Shown piece by piece: positions 20,760-43,839 of a DNA stretch of 64,000 bases. Origin of the DNA: Obrimoposthia wandeli (lineage: Eukaryota); assembly GCA_977020255.1 (NCBI GenBank), contig CDROCS010000777.1:868001-932000 (forward strand), given 5' to 3'. Position numbers and translations under genes: made by a program. The notes under the pieces were generated by a model. The model was not told the origin of the DNA and did no database searches. It worked only from the letters and a program-made list of their open reading frames with translations. Positions within the stretch are counted from its first letter, which is position 1; each line of letters begins with the position of its first letter.

Positions 20760-21700
20760 TCCAAGAGTAAAGGAAGTGGGTCTTCTGGCTCACCCCCGTG
20801 TACAAGTAAGCCAGAAGACCCGAGAAACCAGCAATGTGTATATGTTTCCATGGCTACCGTGACACGTGTTGTAACCATGGTTTTGTTTTAATATTCAATT
20901 TTAGTGCATATTTTGAAATTTTAAAGTTTCTTTAACTCATATCTACTTTCTTTTGTAAAGGTTTTTATTTGTAAAAGTTTTATATTGTAAAAGATTTTGT
21001 AAAGGTTCTGTAAACTTAAAATTGATTAATTTATATTACCATCTTTGTATCAAAGATTATGGTTTGAAGATTAGGTTATTTAAGAAAATCAATCTAAGTA
21101 ATAAATAAGTAATTAATTAAATTATCTCCAATAAACATCGGATATTAATACTATGTTGGAACATACTTTTTAGAAATTATTACATCAGGACTAGAAATGA
21201 AAATATTAAATTATATCCTCTTTCTTTTTCGAAACCTAATTTATTATTTTCAAGTATTGATATCATTTGTTCAATAATGTTTAGAGCATGTATTTATCTC
21301 AGTCATAATTTATTCAGATTACTTGAAGTATATACTTAACTATATTCTCAAAAAATAATATTTTATTGTTCGATTTATCAAACATGAAAATTCTTACAAA
21401 ACTTTATAAGTTTATCGATTCATTGATTTAATCAATATTATGGAAACTTAGAAATTTATATTCAAGCCTCATCAACCAGTCTATTTAATACTTCAAATAA
21501 ATGATCATCGGATAGGTAAAGAAATTAATGTATCGAAGGTTCTAGAAGATAAATTAACAAGATACCTTAGATTTGTGATATTTATATGGTTTAGATGAGA
21601 TATTATCGAGGTGTTCATAAGGCTTGAGAATATAAATTAATAGATAGAAGGTTTAGAAGAAAAAATCACGATTTGTTTAGAAGGTTAATTATATTTTTTC
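20760..21700. repeat. Unclassified interspersed repeat with terminal hairpin, copy 1
   Basis: Hairpin GTCTTCTGGCTCAC..GTAAGCCAGAAGAC at ~20780-20820; the body (~21150-21620) is similar to 52740-53200. Confidence 0.6.
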
Positions 21701-23850: not shown

Positions 23851-24067
23851 AGTTTCTAAATTAATTATGTTTTCTCAAACATATATGTGTTAAGGTTGAG
23901 AATTAAGAAAATTAAATATTTTAGTTGATTAAATACTAAAATAAAAAAGCCTTGAAAGCAAGGTCGAAAATCAAATTAAAATATTAAGTTGAATTTTAGA
24001 AGTAAAATTAGTGAAATATTAGGGTAAAATTAGGAGGACCACGAAGGTCGTGTATTATGCGAAAATG

Positions 24068-24075
24068 TATAAAAG
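24068..24075 (+). promoter_or_regulatory. Candidate LTR TATA box (TATAAAAG)
   Basis: Consensus TATA. The last ATG before 27271 lies immediately upstream (24065), consistent with a TSS near 24100. Confidence 0.55.
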
Positions 24076-24453
24076 TTAAACTAATTAACCCAAAAGGGAC
24101 AATATCAAAAACAAAAACTTAATTAGAAGAAAAACGGTTAATTACAACCGTCGCTCAAGGATCCCAAAGGTAAGCACTTTTGCGTGCAGTAATTAAGATT
24201 TGTTTTCCAGCTGTCATTGACTGACAGAATCCAAAATCACTAGAAGAAATCGACCAGGAAACCCAAAGCAGCTGCCAGTTGATTGGCAACTAGATTCCTA
24301 CTTAAGAAGGGCCATTTCAGGGAACAAACACAATTTCGGAAGCACTCCGGAATCGACTGAAAACAAGAAATCGACTTCTAGGTAACTTTTAGTGTAAGAA
24401 GTTATAAAAATTGAAATTATCTAGGAAAATTGAAGTGAATACCTGAACTGTAA

Positions 24454-24801
24454 CCAACTGATTAAAGAATTGAGAAACGATTCCAACTGATTAAAGAATT
24501 GAGAAACGATTCCAACTGATTAAAGAATTGAGAAACGATTCCAACTGATTAAAGAATTGAGAAACGATTCCAACTGATTAAAGAATTGAGAAACGATTCC
24601 AACTGATTAAAGAATTGAGAAACGATTCCAACTGATTAAAGAATTGAGAAACGATTCCAACTGATTAAAGAATTGAGAAACGATTCCAACTGATTAAAGA
24701 ATTGAGAAACGATTCCAACTGATTGAAGAATTGAGAAACGATTCCAACTGATTAAAGAATTGAGAAACGATTCCAACTGATTGAAGAATTGAGAAACGAT
24801 T
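24454..24801. repeat. 29-bp tandem repeat x12 inside the LTR (also at ~42478-42825)
   Basis: Unit CCAACTGATT(A/G)AAGAATTGAGAAACGATT; 348 bp = 12 x 29. Confidence 0.95.
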
Positions 24802-24908
24802 CCAACTGATTGAACGATTCTGCCAGGCTCGCAAATACCACATACGGACCCTACACCGGACGTCCCACGAGTTGCTGTAACTGGTAAGCACACAGATTAG
24901 GTCCATTC

Positions 24909-25345
24909 ATTGCCCCTAGTAGGCAATTAGGTTATTTCATTACCCCTAGTTGGTAATTCTACGTTTTTAAAATAATAAGCAAATTCATTACCCCTAGCTG
25001 GTAATTAGGACCTGTGTCTCTTTAACACAATCATTACCCCTAGTTGGTAATTAGGATCGGAACTTTATTCATTGTCCCCAGCGACAATTAGGAAACTTAC
25101 CAGACGTTTTTTCCGTAAGATTCATTGTCCCTAGCTGGCAATTAGGTTCCTTCATTGCCCCTAGTTGGTAATTCGGATAAATATTCATTGTCCCTAGTAG
25201 ACAATTCGGTAAGACTCATTGTCCACTAGCTGACAATTCGATTCGCACATTGTCCGTAGTTGACAATTAGGAGCAAGTTTTATTGTCATCTGGACAATTA
25301 GGATTTTAGGAGATCCCTTGTCTACAGTAGACAATTTGGGTCGAA
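24909..25345 (+). repeat. Array of 12 short stem-loops in the LTR (duplicated in the 3' LTR)
   Basis: ATT(GCC/ACC/GTC)-N5-8-(GGC/GGT/GAC)AAT; most loops resemble CCTAG(T/C)(A/T). Confidence 0.85.
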
Positions 25346-25605
25346 CACACAGAGAGAGTAAGGAACAAAGAAATATTTGGTTAGAGATAAGAAGTAGGAG
25401 CGAAGAAAATTAAGAGAGTTGCGTTATAGATTAACCAACCTGAGTAAGAAGACTAAACCTAAGAAACTTAATCACCTGAACGTAAAATCAATACGTGGTT
25501 CATCCCCACTTCTTGTAGAGACTCACAGAAGTCCTTTAGGAATTTTATCATACTTTTTAGAAATACGTACATAAACGTATTGTGGTGTTAGTTACGTGAA
25601 TTTTG

Positions 25606-25611
25606 AATAAA
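25606..25611 (+). promoter_or_regulatory. Candidate polyadenylation signal AATAAA (functional copy expected in the 3' LTR)
   Basis: AATAAA ~205 nt before the LTR end; position fits an R/U5 border. Confidence 0.45.
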
Positions 25612-25824
25612 CAATTTCCTACATTAGAACAAGTTGTTTTACACCCTTCAGACTAAGAGACATCAAATCAATACCTTCAGATAGTACAAGAGATTAGGCA
25701 ACCATAACACTAAGTAGGCCACGACCAACTTTAAGACCTGCTTCTAATCGAACTCACGTTGGGGCCCTCCGCACACTAAGAGGCTCTATACCAAGTTTCG
25801 TATAGAAACCCCAACATATTAAAG

Positions 25825-25843
25825 TGGTGCCCCGAGTGAGGAT
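25825..25843 (+). other. Primer-binding site complementary to elongator tRNA-Met
   Basis: TGGTGCCCCGAGTGAGGAT, 8 nt after the LTR, matches 18/19 the complement of the animal tRNA-Met(e) 3' end as I recall it (TGGTGCCCCGTGTGAGGAT). Confidence 0.85.
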
Positions 25844-25869
25844 AGCTCGTCGGACACAGCGAATTCACG

Positions 25870-26852
25870 TAGAATAAGTTCAGATAAGTTTTGGATAATT
25901 GAGAATAAGTTTCAGGTAAATAGAATAAGTTCAGATAAGTTGCGGATAATTGAGAATAAGTTTCAGGTAAATAGAATAAGTACAGATATTAAGAATAAGT
26001 TTCAGATATTGAGAATAAGTTTCAGATATTAAGAATAAGTTTCAGATATTGAGAATAAGTTTCAGATAAATTGAGAATAAGTTTCAGATAAATTGAGAAT
26101 AAGTTTCAGCAGAAGAATATAGACAATTGAGAATAAGTTTCAGAAGAAGATATAAGTAAATTGAGTTAAGAATTTGATAAGTTTTAAGAAATCGGGTAGA
26201 TTTGTTCCTCGAAGTTAAGAATTTGATAAGTTTTTGAGAAATCGAGTAGATTTGTTCCTCGAAGTTAAGAATTTGATAAGTGTTAAGAAATCGGGTAGAT
26301 TTGTTCCTCAAAGTTAAGAATTTGATAAGTGTTGAGAAATCGGGTAGATTTGTTCCTCGAAGTTAAGAATTTGATAAGTTTTTGAGAAATCGAGTAGATT
26401 TGTTCCTCGAAGTTAAGAATTTGATAAGTGTTAAGAAATCGGGTAGATTTGTTCCTCGAAGTTAAGAATTTGATAAGTGTTGAGAAATCGGGTAGATTTG
26501 TTCCTCGAAGTTAAGAATTTGATAAGTTTTTGAGAAATCGAGTAGATTTGTTCCTCGAAGTTAAGAATTTGATAAGTGTTAAGAAATCGGGTAGATTTGT
26601 TCCTCGAAGTTAAGAATTTGATAAGTGTTGAGAAGTCGAGTGGATTTGTTCCTCGAGTCAGTAAATTTTATAAGTGAGAATCGAGTGGATTGATACTCGA
26701 AGTAATTAATTGAATAAGTTAAGTCGGGAGACTCTGTCCTCGAACTAATTAAAAAGATAAAATCGTAAGTGAATTTGATAAAGTGAGAATCGAGTGGATT
26801 GATACTCGAAGTAATTAATTGAATAGGTTAAGTCGGGAGACTCTGTCCTCGA
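25870..26852 (+). repeat. Leader tandem repeats: ~20-bp GAGAATAAGTTTCAGATATT units, 49-50-bp unit x10, ~109-bp unit x2
   Basis: Read directly from the sequence; the 49-50-bp units contain TCG(A/G)GTAGATTTGTTCCTCGA. Confidence 0.9.
25913..25972 (+). promoter_or_regulatory. Two candidate major splice donors (CAG|GTAAAT at 25915/16 and 25966/67)
   Basis: Consensus-like 5' splice sites ~70 and ~125 nt after the PBS, the position of retroviral major donors. Confidence 0.5.
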
Positions 26853-27150
26853 ACTAATTAAAGAGATAAAAAGTCGTAAAATAAGAATTGTGAAATAAGA
26901 TAAAAATAATAAGTGAATTGATATCGTAAACGAATACATAATTGATAAGACAACGGATAATAGAAAAGGACCCGCGTATAATACTAGAAGACAAAGTCAG
27001 ATCCCCAAGGAAGAGATAAATAATAATAAAGTTAACCGAATTGAACAGGTTCCCCAAACAGATAACAAAGTAACAGAAAAGACTAGAGTCGAAGAAAACG
27101 TATCAGAAAGAGACGTTGATCAATCAGCGGTTTCAACCGGCAGTTTTAAT

Positions 27151-29631
27151 TTGACTGAATTATTTGGTGACATAGACCAAGAAGAATTTGAAATTGCCAA
27201 TCCAGTAGTGATTGAGGAAGTTCCATTGAATAATATTGCAGAAATAGTTGAAGACGATATAGTTGCAGATATGGCTCAACCAGGAGCTCAAGCAGATATT
27301 AATGCAGGAAATAATGTAGGTGACATGAATGCCGAGCAGTTGGCACAAGCTTTAAATGCGACGTTGAGACCCAATTTTTCAGGATCATTGCAGATTACAA
27401 AGTTTAAAGGAGATGAGGAAAGTATTTGTGACTTCCTCGCAGAATATTCGAGTTGTGCAGATGTTCAAGGATGGAACGATAAAGAAAAATGTATCAGAGT
27501 ACAGGCACATTTAACCGGATTAGCACTTGAAGTGTATAAACATTTGACAGAAGCAGAACGTTTGGACTGGCCAACGTTAGAAAATGCTTTTATTGGAAAA
27601 TTGGTATTAGGAGATTTAGCCAAAGTAAATAAGCGACTCATGAGAGAACGGAAACAGAAACATGATGAAGGCGTGAATGAATACGCGTATGTTTTGAGAA
27701 CCTTGGCCGCAAGAGCGTACCCAAGAAGAATAATGAGAAATCAGGACGGTAATCCTGTAGCTCCAGAAGCACAAGCAGCGGAAAATGACCGGAACCAAAA
27801 TGAAATGGCAGAGGTCTTGTTAGATATATTTAGAGGAGGATTGAAAAAGGATATTAAAGTGTTATTAGCGGTATCGGATACAAATGATTTTGATAACGCC
27901 GTGCGAAAGGCGAGAGAGATCGAGAAAAATATAAAGAATAATGCAGCATTGGCAATCTACGCAATGACTGCAGGTGACGACGATAAGACAAAGGTCTTCG
28001 TGAATAAAACAGAACCGAGTAATTTTCAGAATCGAAATTGTGGACAAAATAAGTTTGAAAAAGTAGATGAATCCAGTAACGGAAATAGAGATAATTTCCG
28101 AAGTAGGAATCGAGATGATTCGAGAGGTAGAAATAATAGTGAGTCTTGGAACAGGAATCGAGATGATTCAAGAGGTAGAAATAATAATGATTCGTGGAAT
28201 AGAAATAGAGATGATTCCAGGAATAGATTTAATAGAGATAATTCAGGAAATCGCCAACCTTGGAGAGGAGACGATAGGAATTATAACGCCAACAGAGGAG
28301 AGCGAAGTGACTCTCGATTTGGAAATAATACAGGAAATAGTGACGGAAGATTCAATAATCGAGGAAGCGGGTTTGAATCGAATTTCCGAAGAAATGATTT
28401 TAGAGGACGCTATGATAATAGACAGAATAGTCGTCGAGTACAGTTCGAAGATGAACAAAATAAGATAGATATTCGAGGGAGAATAATGTGTTACACGTGT
28501 AAACAAATGGGTCACTATTCGAGAGACTGTACGAGAAGTAAAGAGTTCGGAACTAACAGATTTGGAAATAATAATTTCGGTAATAATAATTTTGGAAATA
28601 ATTATAGAGGATATAATTCACCTCCGCCATGGAATAGAGGTGGTGGATATACTCCACAGCCATGGAGACTGAATAATCAGTATACAGATAGACAACAGTC
28701 ACCAGGTAGATATAATAACTATGCAGATAGACAGCAAGGAGCTGAGAGATACAGTAATTACGTAGGACAGCAAGGAGCTGAGAGATATAATAATTCCGGT
28801 AGATATAATAATAATAATGTCGACAAGACAAATAGTCGAGAGAGTTCGCCGAAACCGAAAGGAAATTTTAGTTATGTAAGCGATGACAGTGATAGGAATC
28901 GCGAGACCGAGCTTCGACGCGAAATAGATTTTGAAGATAGTGATAGTAAATTTGAACGAATGTTGGGAATAATTAAAGATTCACCACATACAAAGATGGC
29001 GAATTCATCTACGTTGTCGAAACAAGAGAGAAGTCTACACTCGAGAGAAGAGATGAATGATTTAATGAATAGAATATTAGAAGCGTATGAGACACCAATA
29101 GAGAAAACGTGTAACGCACAACCTATGACTGATCATGTGGAAGCAGCGAGAAATGCTACGAGTATGGAAAATGTAAAAAAGATAATTAGTGAAGCTAAGG
29201 AGACGTTAAATCAACCGTTAGATGAAACGAGTGAAGCTCCAGAAGTTCTGGCCAAATTGCAAACAATTAAAGTGCACCGATTGGAAGAAGTGCGTGCAGA
29301 ATTGGTTAAACATAGTCATGATAACTTGGGTTACAAAGAAGTACCCCGAGGACTACTGAAAGGTTATGGTCGTTATGTACAGAGATCAAACCAAAAAGGA
29401 ACGATGAAAATTTCACTTCGATTAATTTCCGGACAGATAATACATGAAAAACTTAACGTGTATCAAACAATGAAAACGATTCGGAAAAAGTTAGCCGAGA
29501 AACTTGAAATTGATGGAATGAATATGTTGTTCCATTATAAAGGGAGATCACTAGATGATGAGGACGTACCAGTCGAGTTTGGATATCCGATAGGAAATGA
29601 ATTAGAGGAAAAATTGATGTCATCACTGTAG
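27151..29631 (+). CDS. gag: Gag: capsid-like domain, R/N/G-rich region, CCHC knuckle, C-terminal ubiquitin-like domain
   Basis: Retrotransposon-gag-like core (WPTLENAF..YAYVLRTLAARAYP..FRGGLKKDIK) and CYTCKQMGHYSRDC at 28489-28530. First ATG is 27271; the frame is open from 26917. Confidence 0.9.
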   Translation: MTELFGDIDQEEFEIANPVVIEEVPLNNIAEIVEDDIVADMAQPGAQADINAGNNVGDMNAEQLAQALNATLRPNFSGSLQITKFKGDEESICDFLAEYSSCADVQGWNDKEKCIRVQAHLTGLALEVYKHLTEAERLDWPTLENAFIGKLVLGDLAKVNKRLMRERKQKHDEGVNEYAYVLRTLAARAYPRRIMRNQDGNPVAPEAQAAENDRNQNEMAEVLLDIFRGGLKKDIKVLLAVSDTNDFDNAVRKAREIEKNIKNNAALAIYAMTAGDDDKTKVFVNKTEPSNFQNRNCGQNKFEKVDESSNGNRDNFRSRNRDDSRGRNNSESWNRNRDDSRGRNNNDSWNRNRDDSRNRFNRDNSGNRQPWRGDDRNYNANRGERSDSRFGNNTGNSDGRFNNRGSGFESNFRRNDFRGRYDNRQNSRRVQFEDEQNKIDIRGRIMCYTCKQMGHYSRDCTRSKEFGTNRFGNNNFGNNNFGNNYRGYNSPPPWNRGGGYTPQPWRLNNQYTDRQQSPGRYNNYADRQQGAERYSNYVGQQGAERYNNSGRYNNNNVDKTNSRESSPKPKGNFSYVSDDSDRNRETELRREIDFEDSDSKFERMLGIIKDSPHTKMANSSTLSKQERSLHSREEMNDLMNRILEAYETPIEKTCNAQPMTDHVEAARNATSMENVKKIISEAKETLNQPLDETSEAPEVLAKLQTIKVHRLEEVRAELVKHSHDNLGYKEVPRGLLKGYGRYVQRSNQKGTMKISLRLISGQIIHEKLNVYQTMKTIRKKLAEKLEIDGMNMLFHYKGRSLDDEDVPVEFGYPIGNELEEKLMSSL

Positions 29632-29672
29632 GACGTCAAGAGTTAGTAGATAATGAAGGATTAACCGAGATA

Positions 29673-30647
29673 TTGAATTCTGCGTTAGAAATGATAAAAA
29701 CGCCTATAGAAATTTTAGACAGTTCAAGCGAAAGCGGAGATAATGATGTAGCTGAAGTTTGGAACAAGACATCCACACCAGAACCGTACGTAGCTGAATT
29801 ACAAGACATGAATTTAGAAAATGAGTTGACAACTCCAGTGGTTGAGGTGCCACCAGAACCAGATATAATTCCAATCAGACAAGATGAAGTCACGGATACA
29901 GCCAACCAAGTGAGACAAAACGAAACCGTAACACAACTAGTAGGAGAAGACGAAGTCTCCGAGATTGTAGATTTGGATTCACCAATTTGGCATGCCGCAT
30001 ACAAAGATAGACAAGCAGAGCAAATGATGCGACAAAATGAAGAGATTGGCCATGAAGAAGGACCAAGTCAAGAGATACAGTATAATGGTGAAACGTATGA
30101 TCCAGGAGAGAATCAAACTGAGTATCAGTATTTTCGAAGAGGGCCTGGAAGACCTAGAAAAGGTGAAAGTATATTACGAAATGTTCTAACTGCACCACAA
30201 ACTGATGAAGAAAGACATCTAAGTATTGGACAGTTAGCGGCGTCATTAGAGCAGTATAGTGCAGAGAGGAATGAAGATATCAGAGGTGATATGAATTCGG
30301 AAACTCCAAGTAGTAAAGATATACTTACGGGAATTCTCAGGCAAGTGAAGCCGAAGTTGTTCAAAATGTACAGAGATGAAACAACCGATATAACAGACAA
30401 TTTGACTAAAGCAGTCAGATCACAGATGTCTGCAGTAAAGAGAATGACCGCGAATCATGTATACCATGCATCGATAGATAGATTTTATGACGGTGAAGTT
30501 TTAGCGAGATTATGTGGAAACCAGACTACAAATAAAAAGTTAATTACAGCGATCACATATCTATGTTTCCAATTGACGGAACGAACGAGCCAACCTCACG
30601 AAGTCAAACAAGGAATAAATGAAGCGATGTATTTGATCGAGAAGTAA
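29673..30647 (+). CDS. Acidic/AT-hook/putative BEN-domain segment, probably a continuation of Gag in the -1 frame
   Basis: 324-aa ORF in the element's codon style; AT-hook RRGPGRPRKG (30135-30164); frame open from 29601, overlapping the ORF1 end. Confidence 0.75.
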   Translation: MNSALEMIKTPIEILDSSSESGDNDVAEVWNKTSTPEPYVAELQDMNLENELTTPVVEVPPEPDIIPIRQDEVTDTANQVRQNETVTQLVGEDEVSEIVDLDSPIWHAAYKDRQAEQMMRQNEEIGHEEGPSQEIQYNGETYDPGENQTEYQYFRRGPGRPRKGESILRNVLTAPQTDEERHLSIGQLAASLEQYSAERNEDIRGDMNSETPSSKDILTGILRQVKPKLFKMYRDETTDITDNLTKAVRSQMSAVKRMTANHVYHASIDRFYDGEVLARLCGNQTTNKKLITAITYLCFQLTERTSQPHEVKQGINEAMYLIEK

Positions 30648-30673
30648 CTTTCGAAGATCCAAGACTTAAAAAA

Positions 30674-32311
30674 TTGGCAAAAAAGGGACTTTTTGCTATA
30701 AAAAAGGATGGTAAAGACGTAATTAAATGCCACAAGTGTAAAAAAGAACGAATTATAGACAGATATACTCTTGAGCTACCTAAGAAAATTTTACATCATG
30801 AATTTTGCGAATTTTGTACTTTTAAAAACAAAATAAAGCAAAAAGAACAGAAAACCGAATGTATAATCGAATACCAAATCACACGAAAAGAGATTTTGGC
30901 TCAACAAGACACACCGGTAGTGTCATTCGTGAGAAGGTTATATCCAAAAGAAGCAGAAAGAATCAGAGAATTGGTAGAATTAAAAATAAAAACTACGCGA
31001 AACGGATACGGATCGATTTTTGAATTACTGCGAGATAAAGATGACAGTACAATTGAAACAAAAGAGAAAGAGTACATAAATGAACTAGAATACGTACTAG
31101 AAGATCCGGAATGCGCAGTTTGCATGGTCAACAAAATAGAAGTTGCCTTTCTACCATGCGGACATGTAAGAACATGTCGGAGATGTGCGAATGAAATGGT
31201 ATCATGTCCGATTTGTCGAAGAATAATAGATCGACAAGTGAGAAACATTAGATTTCACTATCCAAACATAGGAAGTGGACTGACAGAGTGTAATAATTCG
31301 ATAAATACAATATACCATATGGGAAACATAAATGGAGCACAGCGACCAGCAGCTATCATTAGAGTAAATAATTTAAGAGTAAAAGCCTTAATTGATACAG
31401 GTGCTGTAGCTTCGATAGTAAGTGAAGACTGTTTGACAGAGGAACAGAAACGAACAATGGCAGAACCAGATGAATTCTTGGTATCGGTCAATGGAGACCC
31501 TGTAAAAGTGACGGGAATATTACCATGTACATTTATTATTGGACGTAATACGATCACTATACCAGTTAGAATTATGAAAGAATGTCCTGAACCTACAATT
31601 TTAGGAATGGATGTACTATCACAACTTAAAGGGATAAGTATTGATTTACAAGATCCAAGATTGAAGGATAGCACATCAAACAGACAAATAAACCAAATTG
31701 ATGTAATTATAGAGAATCCTATAAAAATCGGTAAAAGATCACAATTTCTCATTCAAGGTCACACATTATCAGAAGATAAAGGACCAGTTGTGTTCGAACC
31801 ATCACGAGATTTCATAGAGAAATACGAATTACCAGTTGTGAGTACAGTATGCCTGATCGAAAACCACAAAATACCAGTTAGACTGATGAATACAACCAAC
31901 AATGACATCCTATTATACAGAGGAATGAGGTTGGGAAAGATAGCACAGATGGAGAATTCCACTGTATGCGCTATGAAACTCGATAAAGATACGAATGATT
32001 ACGAAGAAATAGTAATCCAATCAGAAAGACTGACAACTAGAGAAAAGAAACAATTACTTGATCTAATACATAAATTTCCAAAAGTAATTGCAAAAAATCC
32101 ATATGACATAGGAGAAACACCTGTCATAAAACATACAATACCACTGACAGAAGACAAAGTAGTCAGAAGAAGACCATACCGAGTACCATTACAATTACAA
32201 GATGAAGTAAAAAGTCAGATCGAAGATATGTCTAAAACAGGAGTAATTAGACCGAGTTTTTCGCCATTCTCAGCACCTGTGGTGTTGGTAAAAAGAAGGA
32301 TGGGAAAATGA
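30674..32311 (+). CDS. pol: BIR-like + IAP-type RING + aspartic protease + start of RT
   Basis: C3HC4 RING at 31112-31216, protease LIDTGAVASIVS (DTG at 31394), RT N-terminus RRRPYRVP..IRPSFSPFSAPVVLVK. Frame open from 30623. Confidence 0.9.
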   Translation: MAKKGLFAIKKDGKDVIKCHKCKKERIIDRYTLELPKKILHHEFCEFCTFKNKIKQKEQKTECIIEYQITRKEILAQQDTPVVSFVRRLYPKEAERIRELVELKIKTTRNGYGSIFELLRDKDDSTIETKEKEYINELEYVLEDPECAVCMVNKIEVAFLPCGHVRTCRRCANEMVSCPICRRIIDRQVRNIRFHYPNIGSGLTECNNSINTIYHMGNINGAQRPAAIIRVNNLRVKALIDTGAVASIVSEDCLTEEQKRTMAEPDEFLVSVNGDPVKVTGILPCTFIIGRNTITIPVRIMKECPEPTILGMDVLSQLKGISIDLQDPRLKDSTSNRQINQIDVIIENPIKIGKRSQFLIQGHTLSEDKGPVVFEPSRDFIEKYELPVVSTVCLIENHKIPVRLMNTTNNDILLYRGMRLGKIAQMENSTVCAMKLDKDTNDYEEIVIQSERLTTREKKQLLDLIHKFPKVIAKNPYDIGETPVIKHTIPLTEDKVVRRRPYRVPLQLQDEVKSQIEDMSKTGVIRPSFSPFSAPVVLVKRRMGK

Positions 32312-35300
32312 GATTCTGTATAGATTTCAGAGAACTGAACAAGATCACAAGAAAAGATGTGTATCCATTACCTAGAATCGAAGAGATGCTCGATAAATTG
32401 GGTAATTCAGATTATTTTACGACATTGGATTTGCAGAGTGGATACTGGCAAATCGAGATAGAGGAAGAAGATAAACACAAAACAGCCTTTTCCTGCGGAG
32501 ATGGATTATACGAATGCGAAAAGATGCCATTCGGACTGACAGGAGCTCCAGCAACATTTCAGCGTTGCATGAATTTTGTACTCGCATCGTGTGCAAACAC
32601 GATGGTGTATATTGATGACATAATAATATTTTCGAAAACGTTCGAAGAACATCTAAAAAATCTTGAAGTTGTATTTAAAAGACTGGAAAACGCTAAATTA
32701 AAAGTTAAACCTACAAAATGTGTATGGGCTAAAGAGCGAGTAACATTTTTAGGACATATAGTATCGAAAGAAGGCATTCGTCCTGATCCGGCAAAGATCG
32801 AGAAAGTAAAAGCGCATTTAGCGCCAAAGACTGTTAAGGAGATACAGAGTTTTTTAGGTCTTGCGAATTATTATAGACGATTTGTTGAACATTTTTCAGA
32901 TATAGCAACACCATTGAGAAAGTTGACGAGAAAAGATGAGAAGTTCATATGGGGAGAAGAAGCCCAACAAGCGTTCGAGCATTTAAAAGAAAGACTGATA
33001 AAAGCACCAATATTAGCGTTTCCAGATATAAACCGACAGTTCATACTCATGACAGATGCAAGTAACTATGCTGTAGGAGCAGTATTGGGACAAGAGGATG
33101 ACGAAGGAAGAGAACACGTCATTGCGTATGCGAGTAGAGGATTAAACAGAGCCGAAAGAGGATACTCTGTTATCGAAAAGGAATGTCTAGCCATAGTGTA
33201 TTCATGTAGACAGTACAGACACTATTTGCTAGGACAAAAAGTATTCCTGTATACAGATCACAAACCACTACAGTTCTTATATAAACATAGAGATGAGATG
33301 AGTAGATTAAACAGATGGTTTCTAAAATTGGCCGAATTCGATCTAGAAATCCGTTATAGAACCGGAAAGTCGAATGGCAACGCAGATTGTTTATCGAGAT
33401 TGACAAATGTAGATGAGAAAGGAAACATAATTCCAGAAGAAGATGAAACCAATGACCAAAAAGGAGAAGCAAATCTACTGACGATTTTGCTAAAGACGGG
33501 TAAAATAGACAAAGAGATCATCAAAGAACAGAAAGAAGATGAAGAACTGAGTCTAATCAAAGAATTGCTGGTGAAAGGAGATCTAAACGATGAAATGACG
33601 AAAAAATACTCGATAAAAGAAGGAATCTTGTATATTGTCAATAATGTCGGAAAGATAGTAGTAGTAATTCCGAAGTCATTGAAAACAGCAGTGATGATCC
33701 AGTATCACGACGGAACACTGGGAGGACATCTGTCAGGGCGAAAGACAATAGCCAGAATCAAAGAGAAGTACCATTGGGATGGTATGGAAGACGACATAAA
33801 ACAATGGTGTAAACAATGTAAAGTATGTTTAACCAGAAAAGACACCGGAACTCGTACTAAAGTTCCGTTGAAACCAATGCCAGTTCCCTTGGCACCAATG
33901 GAATTCACAGCGATGGATATATTGGGACCATTGAGAGAATCAAGTAAAGGAAACAAGTATGTCATAGTATTTACGGACTACATGACGAGATGGGTAGAAG
34001 CATATCCCATGCAGAACCAGAAAGCTGAAACAATAGCGCAAATCTTAGTGGAAGAGATAATATTTCGATACGGAGTGCCTAGAAAGTTGTTAACGGATCA
34101 AGGTAAGAACTTCACTGGAGAAGTCATAAAAGCAGTATCGAAGATATTCGGAATCATGAAGTTACAAACTTCACCATATCACCCACAGACAGATGGTCTG
34201 GTGGAAAGGTTTAATAAAACTTTATGTATGATGGTACAATCCTATTGCTCAGACAAGCAAGAGGATTGGGATAAATATTTACCTTCATGTTTATATGCTT
34301 ACAGGAATTCAGTTCGAGAGGCGACAGGTCACACACCATTCTATCTGATGTATCTCAGACAGAACAATATGCCAATGGATCTGGAGTGGACCGAGCCAAC
34401 ATCCCAGTACCTAGAAACTGAACAATACATTGTCGTCATGAAGGAAAGATTACAAGATGCTTGGACCAAAGCCGGATTGAAGTTGAAATTCAATCAAGAA
34501 GGTTACAAGGAACAATACGACAAAAAAGCAAAACCACATGAATTTAGAGTCGGAGATCAAGTGATGATATTTTATCCAGTCATCGAACCAGGTCTATCGT
34601 TTAAACTTCATAGACCATACAAAGGACCATACAAGGTGATCCAGACAACCTCAACAAATTTGAAAGTAATCAACGAAGAGAATCGGAACAAAGAACCGAT
34701 GATTGTACATGCAAATCGATGCAAATTAGTACCAAATAAAGATAATGCGTCACGATATGAGTTAAGATCACAGAAATCGAAGCCAAATACCAATACCATT
34801 AAACTTACACGAATGGTAAGTGATCGGAACTACATAAACATGATGACGAGTGGTAGCGAGAAAAAACCAGCGAGAATTGGTATGCTCAGAATGAAGTGCC
34901 AAGAGGAAAAGGAAGTAATCCGACACATCGCACCACAAGAGATATTAGAAGAAGACGAAGAGATAATAGTTGTTTTCGAAAAAACACAACCGACAGATGT
35001 GGCTAAAGAAGTCATTGTGAAAGATGCACTGACAAACGAATTTCTATGCGAACTTAGAGTGTCATATTACGACGGAAATACATTAGTCGCATCACTTTAT
35101 CAAAATTCCAATGTGTTTACGACTGAGAAAGTGATAATCGAAATCACATTGACACCAAACATAGTTGCATGGCAGAACTATGACAGTACTGAAGCAGGAC
35201 TAGCCAGTCAGGAAGAGAAGGAACCGGCCGGTGGTCACATACTGCATGGTACACCAAAAAGACTCAAACAAGAATACCACGATGTAATAATGGTATTACG

Positions 35301-38300
35301 TAATTCACATGGGAAAAGAGATATCATGAGAGTCCATTTAATCGACGCTGACACTGAAAAGATAATTTGTCAGATGGACACCAAATACTTTGATGGAAAG
35401 ACAATTGTATGTTGTATACCAGAATCTCACCGATTAGAGACAGATCAAACGGAAGTATCTGTAAGGTTGAGCGTAATAGAAGGATTCCATTCGCCAACCC
35501 ATCCGGAAGTGACTAACAATAAAATCATCAAAGCAACGGCAGAATTACGCATTGACAGCGGATACCGGAAGTGGGAAGCTAAAAATAAAAAGCCACAAAG
35601 AATCAATATGATCCGAGAACAAGTGACCAGCTCAATCCAGCCAAAATATCATGCTGAAATAGTATCATCCGCGCCAAGTGTAATTACATCGATAAACGAC
35701 GAAATTATAATTTTACTAAAAAATCGATGGCCGTCATCAACCGAGATACGAGTAAACTTAATTAATTATGCGAAGACACCGATATCTAAGCTGAATGTTA
35801 CCTATTTTGATGGATTGTCCATCATGGGTAAATTGGAAACAATTGTCATGTGCTATGGAGCACAGTTCCAAGTTGAGATACTTAAAGATAGTGTAATACC
35901 GTATCCGATTCACAAATACGAAGGGGAAATCAACCCAATTATTCTAACACCTTCATTAATTTCAGTTCAGACAGACATACCAGAATACCCTTCGAGCGAG
36001 TCTAGTGAAGACAGCGAACCGGAAAGTAACGATACAGAATCAACAGAATCCGAAGATAACATAATAGAGCGATTCGGAAGAACCATGGAGGTTGAATTCG
36101 CTAAAGAGAACAGAAAAAGACAAAACATAGAATTCGTGAAACAGAATATACAAGAAAGACGAATTAAATCTGCAGAAGAGACCGAGTCGGAAGAAGACTC
36201 AACAAAGGAACAGACATCAGAGACAAAGATGAATATCCCTCCAGCAATACGAATGCTGAGAGGAAAGAAACTGGCAAAACTAACTAACATCGACGACCAG
36301 ATAGAGAAGAGATTAGAAAGACTAAAACTTGAAGAGTCAGAATTAATGCCACCAATGAGTGAGATCATTCCAGGTAAGTTATACCTCGGAAATGTGGAGG
36401 ATGCCACAGATGAAAAGAAACTGTTGGAACAAGGGATAACATATGTGATCAACGTTACAATGAATCACAAATCGCAATATCAGACGATCAGAGCTATGAC
36501 ATTAAGAGTAAAAGACTCAATGGACGCTAATCTTCTCGAATGGTTCGTAGAAACAAACGAAATACTTCACAGAGAACTCCGAAACCAAGGAAAAGTGTTG
36601 GTACATTGTCAGAAAGGAATTTCTCGATCAGCAACCCTAGTATTAGCATATCTAATAAAGACTAGACGAATGCAGGTACTAGAAGCGTTAAAATACCTAC
36701 AGGAGAGAAGAAGTATTGCAAACCCAAATCTTAATTTTTTGGGACAGTTGGCAAATTACCAACTTCTGTTGCAAGAACAAAGACGGATGGACGACATTCC
36801 TGAGGATCCAAAGGAAAAGAATTTCCTCCAAGCATTATCACTGACTGGGTTATTTTTAGCTGGAGTCGACAAAATTACACAGATAATGCCAAAAGTATTT
36901 TTATGTCATCCAGGAGATATAGATACTGCTGGATTAAAGTTCCACAGTATCAACCGAGTAATCAACATTGTTGAAGTCGGAAACGAGATAATTAGTCTGT
37001 GTCAAAATACTGAAGATGACACCACTCGATACATACATGCTTCCAATCGAGAGATAAACGATGCGCAACAACATCTGACGAAATTGACTCAAACCATCCA
37101 AGCTGAAGTCACAGAAGGAAACGGCGTTCTGATATATCAGAAAAAAGGTACAATGTTAGCGCCTACCATAGGTGTATCCTTGTTGGTAGAGTACCATGGT
37201 CACACGCCAGAAGAAGCGATGGTCTACATCAAACAGAATAGACCAAATACGGAATTCAAACCGTTACTCGTTCGAGAAATAGAGAAATACACCGAAAAGA
37301 GGAAGCAACAACGAGAAACAAATGAAGCTACAACAACAGTGCCCAGCTTTCAATACCAAAGATTGCTAGCGATAGGCTTGTTAAGTTGTTTAATGCCGAT
37401 AACGGGAGCACAGGAGATAGGCTCCAACCACGGAAATAGTTCCTGGTTCAACGAAATCCACAATTACACCATACAGTACCATACGCCGGCACTGATGATG
37501 CTATTAGTGTTGTTAGGACTAATTGATGTGTGGATCATCCGAAAATGTCTTCGATCTATGAGAACCGACAGTAAAAGATTTCAGTTTGTAAAGATGAAAA
37601 GACCAAATGGACCAACGAACAAAGTGCTTGTGTATCTAGACGAAAGGATCGAAGATAACATAGTAAATGAAGCGATATTTTACCCACAAAACAGAATACT
37701 GAAGCAATTCCGAATAGATTATGAAGCTGACCGACAACGCACACTTGACCAAATATCAACAACATTCGCCGGATGCAAGCGAAGAAAACGAGTTGTAAAG
37801 GAAATACAAAAAGATGCTGATACAAAAGGACCAACGTATATATTCAACGGCGATGTCATCAAAACACGTGAGTATGGAAGTAAGAGAGTGATAATTGAAA
37901 CGATGGAAGGACATAAAACATGCTTGTCCGCCAAAAATGGATTCGGAAAGTTGACGATACAAGGTAAACCAGTACAGTTGATTATCGGAAGAGATGGAAT
38001 CGAGGAGATGTCAAAACAACGACAAACAACAAAACGAACCAATCAGAAACAGATATCTCTCAAACGATTGATAATTAAAACCCTTTGCAAAAGGTCAGTC
38101 AAGGCCCTGTGCACCGTTGCACAAGGATTGATTTATGGAGTAGTAATTGGATTGGTACTGCAAGCCATGCCAACCAGTAAAGCCGAATTGATGACACTAT
38201 CCGAATATAATTTACATTTGAGAAATCTAGACAACACCCTAGAAATAATCAAGACATCCCACAGTAGAGCCGTGATGATCATGTGTGTAAAAGGATGTCC

Positions 38301-40026
38301 AGGACGAATGTGTATAGTCCCAGCAACCGAAATGATAACACTTAATGGACATTATGGAGTTAGTGTTGTCACATGTGAAGACTACATATTTGGACAAACT
38401 AAAATAGTGCTTCTCAGTGACACGTCCAACCAAAGTGCACACAAATTTAAGATATTAACCATCAAGAGTAAAGGAATACCAGCAGTACGTTATGGTATTC
38501 TAGAATTAGTTAATCCAATACTGGCACTGATCATTGGATTTATAATATTAATATTACTCATCTTGTTTTGTTGTTCAAAGATAGAGTCGAGATCAAAAAA
38601 GAAACGTCATGATCTCGCAAGACGAACAGGTCAAATGAACTTACAGAAATTCAACACAATCATACCAAGACCACCATTTCTAGATGAACCAGCACCAGAG
38701 TACCAGCCAACGATATATGAACACATAGAGGAAAGACCGTACTATATGAGTAATTTGACTTGTTTCATTGAAGTTCCTGAGTTTAGGAATCGAACGATCA
38801 TAGGAATCATGCTGATCGTACAAATCACCACTACCAAGGCTAGTTATGAGATCATGATCAGTAAATGGAGACAAGACGTAATACGGGCAATATACATAGA
38901 AATTCCCTTACTAAAAACAAATCACGTAGTAGACATTCATCTACAGACGTCAGCAACTGACAATATCGATCAGAAATTGTATGTCATCCGACAGGTCAGA
39001 ATAAAAATCGACCAAAATACACCCGTTTACAATTTAATATTATTGCATCATGAAAGAGTGTTATACCTACGGATAACAATATCAAAGAGGAAGCGGATTA
39101 TCCAAAGTATCCGAACAAAGTCATTAATATTACCTAGAGATGAGCGCATCTGGAAAATTGTTGACAGGATTATGATCACAGGTAGACGACGTAAAGCCGT
39201 ATGGAATTCCGTTAGGATATTTTTCAGATTGCTAGAAACTGACAGCGTGACAGTAATGTGTCCCAACCCAGATGGCGTAATCAGATTCGAAATCCAAAGC
39301 CAAATGTTAGTACCACATTTTAACACAGAATGTCTGTGTAATCGAATTGCCAGTAATTCTACAGAGACCTCGACCATAATCATGATAATAACAGGTGAAA
39401 TATTCTACATAACTCTAAGATACCAGAACCGTCGATTTCGCAGATACGGTATAAGTATCAAACCCAGGAAAATCATTCCCAGAAGACCAATCCTAGTCAA
39501 AAAGAAGGCAAAGGTAATCGAAAGTAAACGACATTCCAAGAAACCGACAGTGATCAAAACAAAGACAGAAGCGAAAGAAAAAGAGTCCAATCCCAGAAAC
39601 CAAAGTACAATTATTAAGAGGACAAGAGTGAGGGGAACGATCCCACTAGATCCCAAACATCATTTCCAATCCAAAATAATAATACCTGTTCCATCAGAAA
39701 CAAAACACCCAAATCCCCGAATTTTTAGAAAATCGGACATAATACATGGAAACCGATCAAAACCCATGGAAATATCATTCGAACCGACAAACAACAAAAT
39801 GAAGTATGATTATAAAACATCAGACAGCGGAATAACAGCAGTCAATGCCCTAATTGGAATGGCCGTAGTGTCAACAGCGGTGGTTCTACTTACAATCGTG
39901 TGCGTAAAAGGCAGTCAAGTATGCCCAGGAATACGACGAAAATGCGAAGGATTGCGATGCTGTGACACACCCATCATGGAGGAAGTGGAATTACGACCCT
40001 TACCTCCACCTCCCATCAAGATATGA
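32308..40026 (+). CDS. pol: Pol (RT, RNase H, integrase) fused to ~1730 aa of accessory domains (3 Ig-like repeats, DSP, pseudo-DSP, membrane region)
   Basis: YIDD at 32608; RNase H TDAS..EKECLAI..YTDH; IN HHCC, D-D-E core and GPY; no stop until 40026. Confidence 0.97.
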   Translation: MRFCIDFRELNKITRKDVYPLPRIEEMLDKLGNSDYFTTLDLQSGYWQIEIEEEDKHKTAFSCGDGLYECEKMPFGLTGAPATFQRCMNFVLASCANTMVYIDDIIIFSKTFEEHLKNLEVVFKRLENAKLKVKPTKCVWAKERVTFLGHIVSKEGIRPDPAKIEKVKAHLAPKTVKEIQSFLGLANYYRRFVEHFSDIATPLRKLTRKDEKFIWGEEAQQAFEHLKERLIKAPILAFPDINRQFILMTDASNYAVGAVLGQEDDEGREHVIAYASRGLNRAERGYSVIEKECLAIVYSCRQYRHYLLGQKVFLYTDHKPLQFLYKHRDEMSRLNRWFLKLAEFDLEIRYRTGKSNGNADCLSRLTNVDEKGNIIPEEDETNDQKGEANLLTILLKTGKIDKEIIKEQKEDEELSLIKELLVKGDLNDEMTKKYSIKEGILYIVNNVGKIVVVIPKSLKTAVMIQYHDGTLGGHLSGRKTIARIKEKYHWDGMEDDIKQWCKQCKVCLTRKDTGTRTKVPLKPMPVPLAPMEFTAMDILGPLRESSKGNKYVIVFTDYMTRWVEAYPMQNQKAETIAQILVEEIIFRYGVPRKLLTDQGKNFTGEVIKAVSKIFGIMKLQTSPYHPQTDGLVERFNKTLCMMVQSYCSDKQEDWDKYLPSCLYAYRNSVREATGHTPFYLMYLRQNNMPMDLEWTEPTSQYLETEQYIVVMKERLQDAWTKAGLKLKFNQEGYKEQYDKKAKPHEFRVGDQVMIFYPVIEPGLSFKLHRPYKGPYKVIQTTSTNLKVINEENRNKEPMIVHANRCKLVPNKDNASRYELRSQKSKPNTNTIKLTRMVSDRNYINMMTSGSEKKPARIGMLRMKCQEEKEVIRHIAPQEILEEDEEIIVVFEKTQPTDVAKEVIVKDALTNEFLCELRVSYYDGNTLVASLYQNSNVFTTEKVIIEITLTPNIVAWQNYDSTEAGLASQEEKEPAGGHILHGTPKRLKQEYHDVIMVLRNSHGKRDIMRVHLIDADTEKIICQMDTKYFDGKTIVCCIPESHRLETDQTEVSVRLSVIEGFHSPTHPEVTNNKIIKATAELRIDSGYRKWEAKNKKPQRINMIREQVTSSIQPKYHAEIVSSAPSVITSINDEIIILLKNRWPSSTEIRVNLINYAKTPISKLNVTYFDGLSIMGKLETIVMCYGAQFQVEILKDSVIPYPIHKYEGEINPIILTPSLISVQTDIPEYPSSESSEDSEPESNDTESTESEDNIIERFGRTMEVEFAKENRKRQNIEFVKQNIQERRIKSAEETESEEDSTKEQTSETKMNIPPAIRMLRGKKLAKLTNIDDQIEKRLERLKLEESELMPPMSEIIPGKLYLGNVEDATDEKKLLEQGITYVINVTMNHKSQYQTIRAMTLRVKDSMDANLLEWFVETNEILHRELRNQGKVLVHCQKGISRSATLVLAYLIKTRRMQVLEALKYLQERRSIANPNLNFLGQLANYQLLLQEQRRMDDIPEDPKEKNFLQALSLTGLFLAGVDKITQIMPKVFLCHPGDIDTAGLKFHSINRVINIVEVGNEIISLCQNTEDDTTRYIHASNREINDAQQHLTKLTQTIQAEVTEGNGVLIYQKKGTMLAPTIGVSLLVEYHGHTPEEAMVYIKQNRPNTEFKPLLVREIEKYTEKRKQQRETNEATTTVPSFQYQRLLAIGLLSCLMPITGAQEIGSNHGNSSWFNEIHNYTIQYHTPALMMLLVLLGLIDVWIIRKCLRSMRTDSKRFQFVKMKRPNGPTNKVLVYLDERIEDNIVNEAIFYPQNRILKQFRIDYEADRQRTLDQISTTFAGCKRRKRVVKEIQKDADTKGPTYIFNGDVIKTREYGSKRVIIETMEGHKTCLSAKNGFGKLTIQGKPVQLIIGRDGIEEMSKQRQTTKRTNQKQISLKRLIIKTLCKRSVKALCTVAQGLIYGVVIGLVLQAMPTSKAELMTLSEYNLHLRNLDNTLEIIKTSHSRAVMIMCVKGCPGRMCIVPATEMITLNGHYGVSVVTCEDYIFGQTKIVLLSDTSNQSAHKFKILTIKSKGIPAVRYGILELVNPILALIIGFIILILLILFCCSKIESRSKKKRHDLARRTGQMNLQKFNTIIPRPPFLDEPAPEYQPTIYEHIEERPYYMSNLTCFIEVPEFRNRTIIGIMLIVQITTTKASYEIMISKWRQDVIRAIYIEIPLLKTNHVVDIHLQTSATDNIDQKLYVIRQVRIKIDQNTPVYNLILLHHERVLYLRITISKRKRIIQSIRTKSLILPRDERIWKIVDRIMITGRRRKAVWNSVRIFFRLLETDSVTVMCPNPDGVIRFEIQSQMLVPHFNTECLCNRIASNSTETSTIIMIITGEIFYITLRYQNRRFRRYGISIKPRKIIPRRPILVKKKAKVIESKRHSKKPTVIKTKTEAKEKESNPRNQSTIIKRTRVRGTIPLDPKHHFQSKIIIPVPSETKHPNPRIFRKSDIIHGNRSKPMEISFEPTNNKMKYDYKTSDSGITAVNALIGMAVVSTAVVLLTIVCVKGSQVCPGIRRKCEGLRCCDTPIMEEVELRPLPPPPIKI
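36355..36775 (+). other. Dual-specificity phosphatase domain (catalytic motif intact) within the polyprotein
   Basis: SEIIPGKLYLG..GITYVINVT..VLVHCQKGISRSATLVLAYL..RRSIANPNLNFLGQL; HCxxGxxRS at 36604-36630. Confidence 0.95.
36874..37290 (+). other. Second DSP-fold domain lacking the catalytic Cys/Arg (pseudophosphatase)
   Basis: ITQIMPKVFL..INRVINIV..GNGVLIYQKKGTMLAPTIGVSLLVEYHGHTPEEAMVYIKQNRP parallels domain 1, with the HCxxGxxR motif degenerate. Confidence 0.8.
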
Positions 40027-40149
40027 TGAGTCAGAGGAGGTTGTAGATAAATTAGTGTGTGAAATATGTAGAAATATCTAGAAGCGATTGTACAAATAGT
40101 AGCAGTATATAAAACTCATGTAGAAATTAATCATCATCATGTATTTAGA

Positions 40150-40449
40150 ATGGCCGAAGAATGCCCAATATGTTTAGAAGATCTAACCGAACGAAGAACA
40201 AGACCCGAAACCTGCAACCATTTACACCACGAGGAATGTTTATCGACATGGATCAGAACTTATGGACAGTTCGGACACCCAACATACCCTCGTTGCCCTA
40301 TATGCAGAAGACAATTCGCAAGATTCGTCATGTTAGAACCCAACCAAAGGGATGTATATGTACAGGTGGTATTCTGCTGGAAGAATTTCGGAGAGTGTTG
40401 GTGTTATTACTGTTTGTCAGATCGACAAAATCAGACCACTTTTGTGTAA
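40150..40449 (+). CDS. Small RING-H2 protein 1 with C-terminal Cys cluster
   Basis: CPIC..CNHLHHEEC..W..CPIC, then CWKNFGECWCYYC. Confidence 0.9.
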   Translation: MAEECPICLEDLTERRTRPETCNHLHHEECLSTWIRTYGQFGHPTYPRCPICRRQFARFVMLEPNQRDVYVQVVFCWKNFGECWCYYCLSDRQNQTTFV

Positions 40450-40509
40450 AGATCACACAACCACCAGTCCTCAATCGAGCCCAAATTCAACATCAACCCT
40501 CCCACAGTA

Positions 40510-40815: not shown

Positions 40816-41148
40816 TCGAAGGTAACTTTCTGACTTGAACATGACATCATGAACTACCCTGTGTATCGCATACCGCGATAAATTAGCTACCATAATTGTA
40901 ATCATAATTATATAATCTTGTGAACTGTAAATTGACCATTACCATTTTTATGTATGATGTTTAACTGAAATTGTAATTATTATACTGAATTTCTAAAAAG
41001 ACAATTTTTATGCTTAGTGTGAATGCGTAAACATGCCTAAAATCGAAACAAAACTCGGTAGGATTAGATAACTAAGGATTCATTTTGAAACAAAATTTAA
41101 ATTAACGATGAGAACGGTGAACCCCAAATTGAAAGGAGTCATTTTCTC

Positions 41149-41912: not shown

Positions 41913-43839
41913 TGTTAAGGTTGAGAATTAAGAAAATTAAATATTTTAGTTGATTAAATACTAAAATAAAAAAGCCTTGAAAGCAAGGTCGAAAATCAAA
42001 TTAAAATATTAAGTTGAATTTTAGAAGTAAAATTAGTGAAATATTAGGGTAAAATTAGGAGGACCACGAAGGTCGTGTATTATGCGAAAATGTATAAAAG
42101 TTAAACTAATTAACCCAAAAGGGACAATATCAAAAACAAAAACTTAATTAGAAGAAAAACGGTTAATTACAACCGTCGCTCAAGGATCCCAAAGGTAAGC
42201 ACTTTTGCGTGCAGTAATTAAGATTTGTTTTCCAGCTGTCATTGACTGACAGAATCCAAAATCACTAGAAGAAATCGACCAGGAAACCCAAAGCAGCTGC
42301 CAGTTGATTGGCAACTAGATTCCTACTTAAGAAGGGCCATTTCAGGGAACAAACACAATTTCGGAAGCACTCCGGAATCGACTGAAAACAAGAAATCGAC
42401 TTCTAGGTAACTTTTAGTGTAAGAAGTTATAAAATTGAAATTATCTAGGAAAATTGAAGTGAATACCTGAACTGTAACCAACTGATTAAAGAATTGAGAA
42501 ACGATTCCAACTGATTAAAGAATTGAGAAACGATTCCAACTGATTAAAGAATTGAGAAACGATTCCAACTGATTAAAGAATTGAGAAACGATTCCAACTG
42601 ATTAAAGAATTGAGAAACGATTCCAACTGATTAAAGAATTGAGAAACGATTCCAACTGATTAAAGAATTGAGAAACGATTCCAACTGATTAAAGAATTGA
42701 GAAACGATTCCAACTGATTAAAGAATTGAGAAACGATTCCAACTGATTGAAGAATTGAGAAACGATTCCAACTGATTAAAGAATTGAGAAACGATTCCAA
42801 CTGATTGAAGAATTGAGAAACGATTCCAACTGATTGAACGATTCTGCCAGGCTCGCAAATACCACATACGGACCCTACACCGGACGTCCCACGAGTTGCT
42901 GTAACTGGTAAGCACACAGATTAGGTCCATTCATTGCCCCTAGTAGGCAATTAGGTTATTTCATTACCCCTAGTTGGTAATTCTACGTTTTTAAAATAAT
43001 AAGCAAATTCATTACCCCTAGCTGGTAATTAGGACCTGTGTCTCTTTAACACAATCATTACCCCTAGTTGGTAATTAGGATCGGAACTTTATTCATTGTC
43101 CCCAGCGACAATTAGAAACTTACCAGACGTTTTTCCGTAAGATTCATTGTCCCTAGCTGGCAATTAGGTTCCTTCATTGCCCCTAGTTGGTAATTCGGAT
43201 AAATATTCATTGTCCCTAGTAGACAATTCGGTAAGACTCATTGTCCACTAGCTGACAATTCGATTCGCACATTGTCCGTAGTTGACAATTAGGAGCAAGT
43301 TTTATTGTCATCTGGACAATTAGGATTTTAGGAGATCCCTTGTCTACAGTAGACAATTTGGGTCGAACACACAGAGAGAGTAAGGAACAAAGAAATATTT
43401 GGTTAGAGATAAGAAGTAGGAGCGAAGAAAATTAAGAGAGTTGCGTTATAGATTAACCAACCTGAGTAAGAAGACTAAACCTAAGAAACTTAATCACCTG
43501 AACGTAAAATCAATACGTGGTTCATCCCCACTTCTTGTAGAGACTCACAGAAGTCCTTTAGGAATTTTATCATACTTTTTAGAAATACGTACATAAACGT
43601 ATTGTGGTGTTAGTTACGTGAATTTTGAATAAACAATTTCCTACATTAGAACAAGTTGTTTTTACACCCTTCAGACTAAGAGACATCAAATCAATACCTT
43701 CAGATAGTACAAGAGATTAGGCAACCATAACACTAAGTAGGCCACGACCAACTTTAAGACCTGCTTCTAATCGAACTCACGTTGGGGCCCTCCGCACACT
43801 AAGAGGCTCTATACCAAGTTTCGTATAGAAACCCCAACA
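41913..43839 (+). repeat. 3' LTR (1927 bp)
   Basis: Copy of 23888-25816 with four 1-bp homopolymer-length differences found by eye. Confidence 0.98.

Follow-up and report, generated by a model that had tools for sequence, protein, structure and literature searches.

A 64,000-nt stretch of the Obrimoposthia wandeli genome (contig CDROCS010000777.1, positions 868,001 to 932,000), called the window below, contains a long terminal repeat (LTR) retrotransposon of the Burro-like Ty3/gypsy type at positions 23888-43839. The two LTRs are 99.74% identical over 1937 nt (one mismatch and four gaps); this similarity, together with the TG...CA ends and the TATG sequence on both flanks, indicates a young insertion. 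Four long forward frames were detected within the element, which encode a Gag part with a CCHC knuckle, a second polyprotein piece (29601-30647), a RING domain together with a retropepsin, and finally reverse transcriptase (RT), RNase H (RH) and integrase (IN) followed by two dual-specificity phosphatase (DSP) domains (Table 1). The stretch ahead of the retropepsin is the subject of this report. It probably represents the back half of a whole cellular inhibitor of apoptosis protein (IAP) that is carried intron-free by the Burro-like element, was likely captured as mRNA and, once freed by proteases, would act as a RING ligase favouring the survival of the expressing cells.

An earlier note on this DNA had proposed that a captured IAP module consisting of a BIR-like part and an IAP-type RING is fused directly upstream of the protease. 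The residues quoted there are located in the forward frame 30623-32311. The RING covers amino acids 161-204 of this frame and matches PF13920 with an E value of 4.6e-12 and 46 bits, the cut-off being 27. The proposed position was borne out, since the retropepsin (amino acids 240-337) follows in the same frame about 28 residues past the RING tail. The IAP type of the RING was likewise confirmed by a sequence search of the PDB, in which cIAP1, cIAP2 and XIAP provided the top nine of 54 matches (E 2e-11 to 9e-10) and MGRN1 came last with an E value of 0.66. With this ranking, a non-IAP RING was rejected, including the grouping with MGRN1 that had been named as a refutation. A UBA-like domain situated between the BIR-like part and the RING, at the position typical of IAPs, had been missed. 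This domain gave no Pfam hit on its own. Among the fetched proteins, a profile built for it recognised 50 IAPs at their UBA region (best independent E value outside the clade described below, 2.6e-9), and its model was aligned to the XIAP UBA structure 2kna over 55 residues with an rmsd of 2.1 and a Z score of 6.1, which is below the caution line of 8 given for the tool.

The window copy of the element is incomplete. Measured against C901 and C454, two other copies, 3,325 nt are missing at 30636-30643, a figure that is the same for either comparison, and the deletion removed the end of a Bcl-2-like domain, the env region, a first protease (PR1) and a canonical BIR (BIR1). The segment 30627-31216, which had been taken for the whole module, is therefore a deletion remnant, as in other copies it is preceded by an additional protease and a canonical BIR; the canonical motif was found in 65 of 66 fetched module loci, and 64 of the 66 are continuous across the junction point. 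Contigs from four of four runs, all of one sample, part from the window at 30636 and 30643. The upstream frame ends at a stop codon at 30647, which separates it from the remaining part of the module (termed BIR2'-UBA-RING here), and translation of this remnant within a polyprotein is improbable. The methionine assumed to start the module is encoded by an ATG at 30627 that belongs to the upstream frame, and a stand-alone open reading frame (ORF) beginning there was rejected because this ATG is out of frame with the module.

Copy C901, which serves as a descriptive reference only, has a single frame of 5,487 amino acids with the order Gag, ubiquitin-like, Bcl-2-like, env, PR1, BIR1, BIR2', UBA-like, RING, second protease (PR2), RT, RH, IN and DSP. 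The env domain (PF24664, E 3e-94) and BIR1 (E 1e-9, 39.2 bits, above the PF00653 cut-off) are clearly recognised in C901; the ubiquitin-like (E 0.03) and Bcl-2-like domains (PF00452, E 0.038, below the cut-off) are weak. A PDB sequence search with the Bcl-2-like stretch did not find Bcl-2, and the ESM Atlas provided no usable lead for this stretch or for BIR2'-UBA. The two proteases are 29% identical and both contain the DTG motif; PR1 (locus L063) occupies amino acids 996-1095 of the polyprotein P0005 with an intact DTGS.

Relatives of the module were also detected outside the retrotransposon. A library of protein representatives contained three full-length relatives that stand alone (P0016, P0088 and P0089), and a soil-metagenome contig 66% identical to P0016 was found to break off at GTAAGT within BIR1. 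When this metagenome exon was used as a probe, one place in the O. wandeli genome stood out (58.9 bits, the next being 40.3, among the 150 matches listed), and the respective gene (G000:C369) has an intron at the same position as the break. A search of the genome with PF21290 had not revealed a host gene. G000:C369 consists of six predicted exons at 359261-346141 (about 13 kb) with five introns, all GT-AG, and an open spliced frame; the predicted product has the composition BIR1-BIR2'-UBA-RING and the C-terminus VRGIRFHGIN. It is 32% identical to amino acids 1140-1517 of P0005 over 399 columns (E 8e-67), the alignment runs through all five intron positions, and the end of the protein coincides with the end of the homology. 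One of its exons was used as a probe and matched the genome at one place. Apart from P0089, no close relative of the module came up in word-index protein searches, and IMG/VR yielded three generic viral IAPs and nothing for P0088. The six-exon IAP of the same genome likely represents the lineage from which the IAP of the element was donated, and the capture very probably took place at the RNA level, because the copy in the element is intron-free while the host relative has five introns. Two single-BIR ORFs, L031 (C694) and L032 (C6834), were additionally noticed; we take them to be host survivin-like and BRUCE-like exons, these names resulting from a reading of the sequence.

With the host gene at hand, the atypical second BIR could be evaluated. 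The BIR-like stretch that the earlier note had described is real, yet weak when considered alone: its best Pfam match, PF00653, has 17.1 bits, under the cut-off of 22.9, whereas alignment with the host gene gave a score of 93 (82 for the UBA), compared with 55 and 56, respectively, for the best of 2000 shuffles. In an hhalign comparison, the whole module was aligned to a three-BIR IAP (P0125) over 324 columns (99.9%), with BIR2' falling on a canonical BIR. The altered spacing is likewise real as to the interval of 18 residues, but the set of ligands had to be corrected to H-x3-C, with the first cysteine of HHEFC, as kept in the relatives. BIR2' therefore has the pattern C-x2-C-x18-H-x3-C instead of C-x2-C-x16-H-x6-C, the canonical BIR motif being described in the available text of PMC7768685. 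This spacing is shared by the host gene, P0016, P0088 and the IAP of a Polinton-like family (M1, see below), and P0089 has x19. Since it is common to an intron-containing host gene, the odd spacing reads as an inherited lineage trait and not as the degeneration that had been considered; a conserved BIR with the CxxC-x18-H-x3-C pattern is in itself a minor structural peculiarity.

The predicted structure of the remnant has a mean pLDDT of 80, with 95-98 for the UBA, about 94 for the RING, and 85-91 for residues 11-40 of BIR2' (below 70 beyond them), which form one helix and three strands. The best Foldseek match was cIAP1 (3t6p, E 7e-6), and viral IAPs lead in a viral structure library (IAP-3 and others, E 6e-7 and weaker). 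Of the structures listed by the fold searches, none was a stand-alone BIR. The W..DDPW.EH pattern seen in the canonical BIRs of the alignment is missing from BIR2'. These residues are tied to the groove that accommodates IAP-binding motifs, and direct caspase binding by BIR2' through such a groove appears less likely because the pattern is missing.

Selection on the module was assessed by the variation among 36 copies. Variants shared by at least two copies gave omega values of 0.07 for the RING (12 synonymous and three non-synonymous), 0.10 for the UBA, 0.20 for BIR2', 0.42 for BIR1, 0.04 for PR1 and 0.06 for PR2, all of which are to be read as indicative, as the copies were chosen by likeness to P0016 or P0088 and the counts are biased. 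These values are indicative of purifying selection on RING, UBA, BIR2', PR1 and PR2; within the module, BIR1 changes most rapidly. The eight RING ligands are kept in all 36 copies, zinc ligands overall in 34-36 of 36, and DTGS of PR1 in 34 of 34. A diverged subfamily with 88% identity (L092, G000:C2832) differs mainly in the BIR1 region.

In the mechanism proposed here, a cellular IAP mRNA would have been captured into the Burro-like polyprotein during reverse transcription. The flanking proteases PR1 and PR2 would cut the polyprotein on both sides of the module and thereby free a near-native IAP, which would work as a UBA-RING ubiquitin ligase and might dampen death or immune signalling in cells expressing the element. 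With good confidence, the UBA-RING part is predicted to have retained ligase activity; proteolytic release of the module is reasonably likely, and an anti-apoptotic or immune-signalling role is given a slight preference over another target.

The strongest competing explanation, which we nevertheless regard as doubtful, is that the module remains attached to what is made from Gag-Pol and benefits the element, with no role in apoptosis. It might then promote ubiquitin-dependent particle assembly or budding, limit the element through breakdown of its own polyprotein, or eliminate a restriction factor. Such a service to the element would agree with RING and UBA being the most constrained parts and BIR1 the fastest-changing one, with the presence of env and of a second RING ORF, and with the missing groove pattern of BIR2'. 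It accounts less well for the retention of the whole gene including both BIRs, for the Bcl-2-like domain (weak, as stated above) in the same polyprotein, and for the occurrence of the same gene as a stand-alone ORF in the Polinton-like elements, where Gag is absent.

Several observations weigh against a protease-freed IAP of cellular origin that promotes survival. By structure alone, IDOL (Z 9.2) and MEX3C (8.3) match the RING as well as BIRC7 does (8.3). The BIR shape of the model is partly circular, as 57 of the 65 rows of the underlying alignment are canonical IAPs, and a first model derived from six rows had a pLDDT of 37. Omega from singleton variants is also below 1 (0.3-0.7). The exon structure of the host gene is a prediction, and activity, cleavage and expression of the module are putative. 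Moreover, according to the available text of PMC8532177, RNAi against BURRO1 brought no improvement of the smedwi-2 phenotype of Schmidtea mediterranea, and this test therefore gave no sign of an effect at the host level.

The search for BIR motifs in the genome revealed, after the survivin-like and BRUCE-like ORFs, two intronless ORFs of 341 and 301 amino acids that belong to two repeat families, M1 and M2, and are co-linear with the LTR module (E 2e-46 and 7e-45). M1 is about 14 kb long and has inverted repeats of 4 kb, each with an IAP and a DSP gene, and it also encodes an ATPase (E 4e-6) and has an integrase-like ORF; no long, PolB-sized ORF is present between the repeats. M2 encodes an A32 ATPase (E 5e-7), an rve integrase with a chromodomain (E 2e-12) and a weakly recognised double jelly-roll protein (E 0.007), and its long ORFs match only EndoVII in Pfam. 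The hallmarks of Polinton/Maverick elements, namely A32 ATPase, rve integrase, jelly-roll capsid and terminal inverted repeats, are found in these families taken together. One M1 element is located at G000:C777:600240-614146 (L070-L071) with repeats 99.7% identical, and a similar one on C609 (L118-L119); a capsid-like core was noticed in M1, and the active-site motif of its DSP looks degenerate. M2 loci include L074-L075, L072-L073 and L113-L114 (C472, C3067), and the M2 IAP has lost most of BIR2'. A short ORF directly upstream of it (L132:1071-1406, L138:1103-1420) looks TBP-like by its motif (EPELFP...VFASGK).

A phylogenetic tree was calculated from 18 rows, including the host gene and 10 outgroup IAPs picked from the matches. 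The LTR, Polinton-like and host sequences group with the three stand-alone proteins in a single clade that excludes the 10 other IAPs (100/100), and this clade was also supported at 99 and 100/100 in trees without the host gene. The one viral IAP placed on a tree (L122) fell outside this clade. Within the clade, M1 and M2 join the host gene (92/89) and the LTR sequence stands apart with the host gene as its nearest outside row; the branching order there is mostly uncertain, and branches are long. An approximately unbiased (AU) test rejected a common clade of LTR and Polinton-like sequences (p 0.037) for a hypothesis framed post hoc and a set with long branches.

From this topology, two separate captures of the same IAP gene, one by the LTR element and one by the Polinton-like elements, are favoured. 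It is unlikely that the gene was captured from the host once, with the LTR element taking it from a Polinton-like element or giving it to one. A single event would explain why two Polinton-like families of this genome have intronless, co-linear IAP ORFs, why their modules and that of the LTR element contain an SNVP linker behind BIR1 that is missing from the host gene, and why one of these families has a DSP gene, as the LTR element does (31% identity); a DNA element, moreover, requires a processed template from some source. It conflicts with the grouping of the Polinton-like IAPs with the host gene to the exclusion of the LTR copy, with the post hoc AU test, and with the full BIR2' and the host leader HYKNV.FGP, which are retained by the LTR element and partly lost in both Polinton-like families. 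Returning to two captures, we tentatively suggest that an env-bearing retrotransposon and Polinton-like DNA viruses of one host each took up the same cellular IAP gene in the form of processed mRNA, and that the retrotransposon product, lying between two conserved proteases and excised by them as a free IAP of viral type, might form with the Bcl-2-like domain a cassette keeping element-expressing somatic cells alive, with copies outnumbering the host gene by hundreds or more.

As regards the window copy, we consider it improbable that the deletion junction is an assembly error rather than part of a real, defective insertion. An error would fit the finding that only one of five scored DNA matches, namely the window itself, spans the junction, and that no bridging contig was among the pieces listed. 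It would also fit the many copies with short frames and the two other frame breaks of the window copy, which fall within A-runs at about 29.6 and 32.3 kb and may be real or sequencing errors. A genuine insertion is favoured by two full LTRs with a matching target duplication and by the overlap of 8 nt at the junction, as template switching or microhomology repair is expected to leave a short overlap. In the genome of 1.35 Gb, at least 150 copies of the module with 99-100% identity are present among the matches listed (21,385 first-look candidates). That the module is neutral, decaying cargo with a ruined BIR is very improbable and holds only for the single deleted and frameshifted window copy: despite the BIR score below the Pfam cut-off, this reading is contradicted for the family by the inherited spacing, the mostly synonymous shared variants and the conserved zinc ligands, with which neutral decay of the BIR was rejected.

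The element was compared with known systems. That giant elements of planarians carry BIR and RING domains has been published before, and for the BIR the earlier note had surmised as much: according to the available text of PMC6431247, BIR, an AIR1/RING motif, BCL2-like and ubiquitin-like domains and env occur in Burro/GYPSM1 and in the Burro-like element of a second planarian, and interference with host apoptosis and ubiquitination was proposed there without a test. Both systems share one polyprotein of about 5,000 amino acids with Gag, ubiquitin-like and BCL2-like domains, env between gag and pol, BIR, protease, RT, RH and IN in the described order, as well as a very high copy number; in C901, the frame length and env agree clearly with this description, the BIR is strong, and the other two cargo domains are weak. 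MATH and ankyrin domains were not detected in C901 at E 0.1, and the length of the present element, about 24-25 kb, differs from the more than 30 kb of Burro1; the element of D. tigrina is also described there as having no MATH in ORF1. Unlike Burro, for which two or three CCHC motifs are described, one strict CCHC is present here, and two DSP domains follow IN. The protein searches returned no Burro sequence. Beyond the BIR and the AIR1/RING motif, the available description of Burro makes no mention of a complete BIR-BIR-UBA-RING gene, of a further protease or of a donor. In the literature searched, donor gene, whole-gene capture, flanking proteases and parallel Polinton-like copies were not found, and Grohme 2018 with its supplements may show a second protease or a full IAP.

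The module resembles cellular cIAP1, cIAP2, XIAP and DIAP in the order of BIRs, UBA and RING, in the RING ligands and tail, and in the canonical BIR1 of undeleted copies. It differs from them by having two BIRs and no CARD, by the spacing of the second BIR, and by a RING that lies inside a polyprotein and not at a C-terminus. It shares with IAPs of baculoviruses, nudiviruses and entomopoxviruses the virus-borne combination of BIR and RING, those proteins being encoded by stand-alone genes of DNA viruses. Adintoviruses carry IAP and Bcl2 homologs as cargo (PMC8502044), which the two Polinton-like families fit; the available text gives no donor gene and no link to an LTR element. Burro and Polinton are described as de-repressed in the planarian soma (PMC8532177). 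With a host gene and its counterparts in a retroelement and in Polinton-like elements, the proposal on apoptosis and ubiquitination becomes testable domain by domain; the loss of introns documents the probable route of capture, and the data suggest that two unrelated classes of mobile elements chose the same host gene.

Table 1. Features of the Burro-like LTR retrotransposon in the window
Feature	Coordinates	Strand	Evidence and remarks
5' LTR	23888..25816	+	TG...CA ends; TATG target-site duplication at 23884-23887
Gag part of polyprotein, CCHC knuckle and weak ubiquitin-like domain	26917..29631	+	PF00098 E 1.7e-5; frame breaks at its end in an A-run
Next polyprotein piece, ending in deletion-shortened Bcl-2-like domain	29601..30647	+	Holds the ATG at 30627
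Deletion junction, 8-nt overlap	30636..30643	+	3,325 nt gone
BIR2', atypical second BIR, RxxTF...CxxC-x18-H-x3-C	30638..30841	+	PF00653 E 0.0084; alignment with host gene
IAP-type UBA-like helical domain	30860..31048	+	Profile; structural match to XIAP UBA 2kna
IAP-type C3HC4 RING, tail VRNIRFH	31103..31258	+	PF13920; tail agrees with C-terminus of host gene
Retropepsin PR2 (DTGA)	31340..31633	+	PF13975 E 5.6e-8, PF00077 E 1.7e-6
RT, RNase H, integrase, two DSP domains, unassigned sequence	32251..40026	+	A-run break parts this piece from the preceding frame
3' LTR	41913..43839	+	Followed by TATG at 43840-43843

Further features were noticed in the element and its surroundings. The first DSP domain after the integrase (36379-36762) keeps the motif HCxxGxxRS, which is missing from the second, and the 31% identity mentioned above refers to the DSP of M1. 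Ahead of the 3' LTR, two accessory ORFs are located at 41101-41649 and 40149-40838, the former encoding the second RING (PF13639, E 1.8e-7); related Cys-rich pieces occur in other nearby frames. Tandem arrays of 29-nt units are present in both LTRs (24291-24909 and 42315-42933), and units of about 49 nt in the leader (26115-26705). A direct repeat of about 600 nt, 84% identical, flanks the element (20963-21563 and 52546-53142) and is probably another interspersed repeat, and a fragment of a piggyBac-like transposase was detected at 5386-6033 (PF13843, E 1.5e-12).

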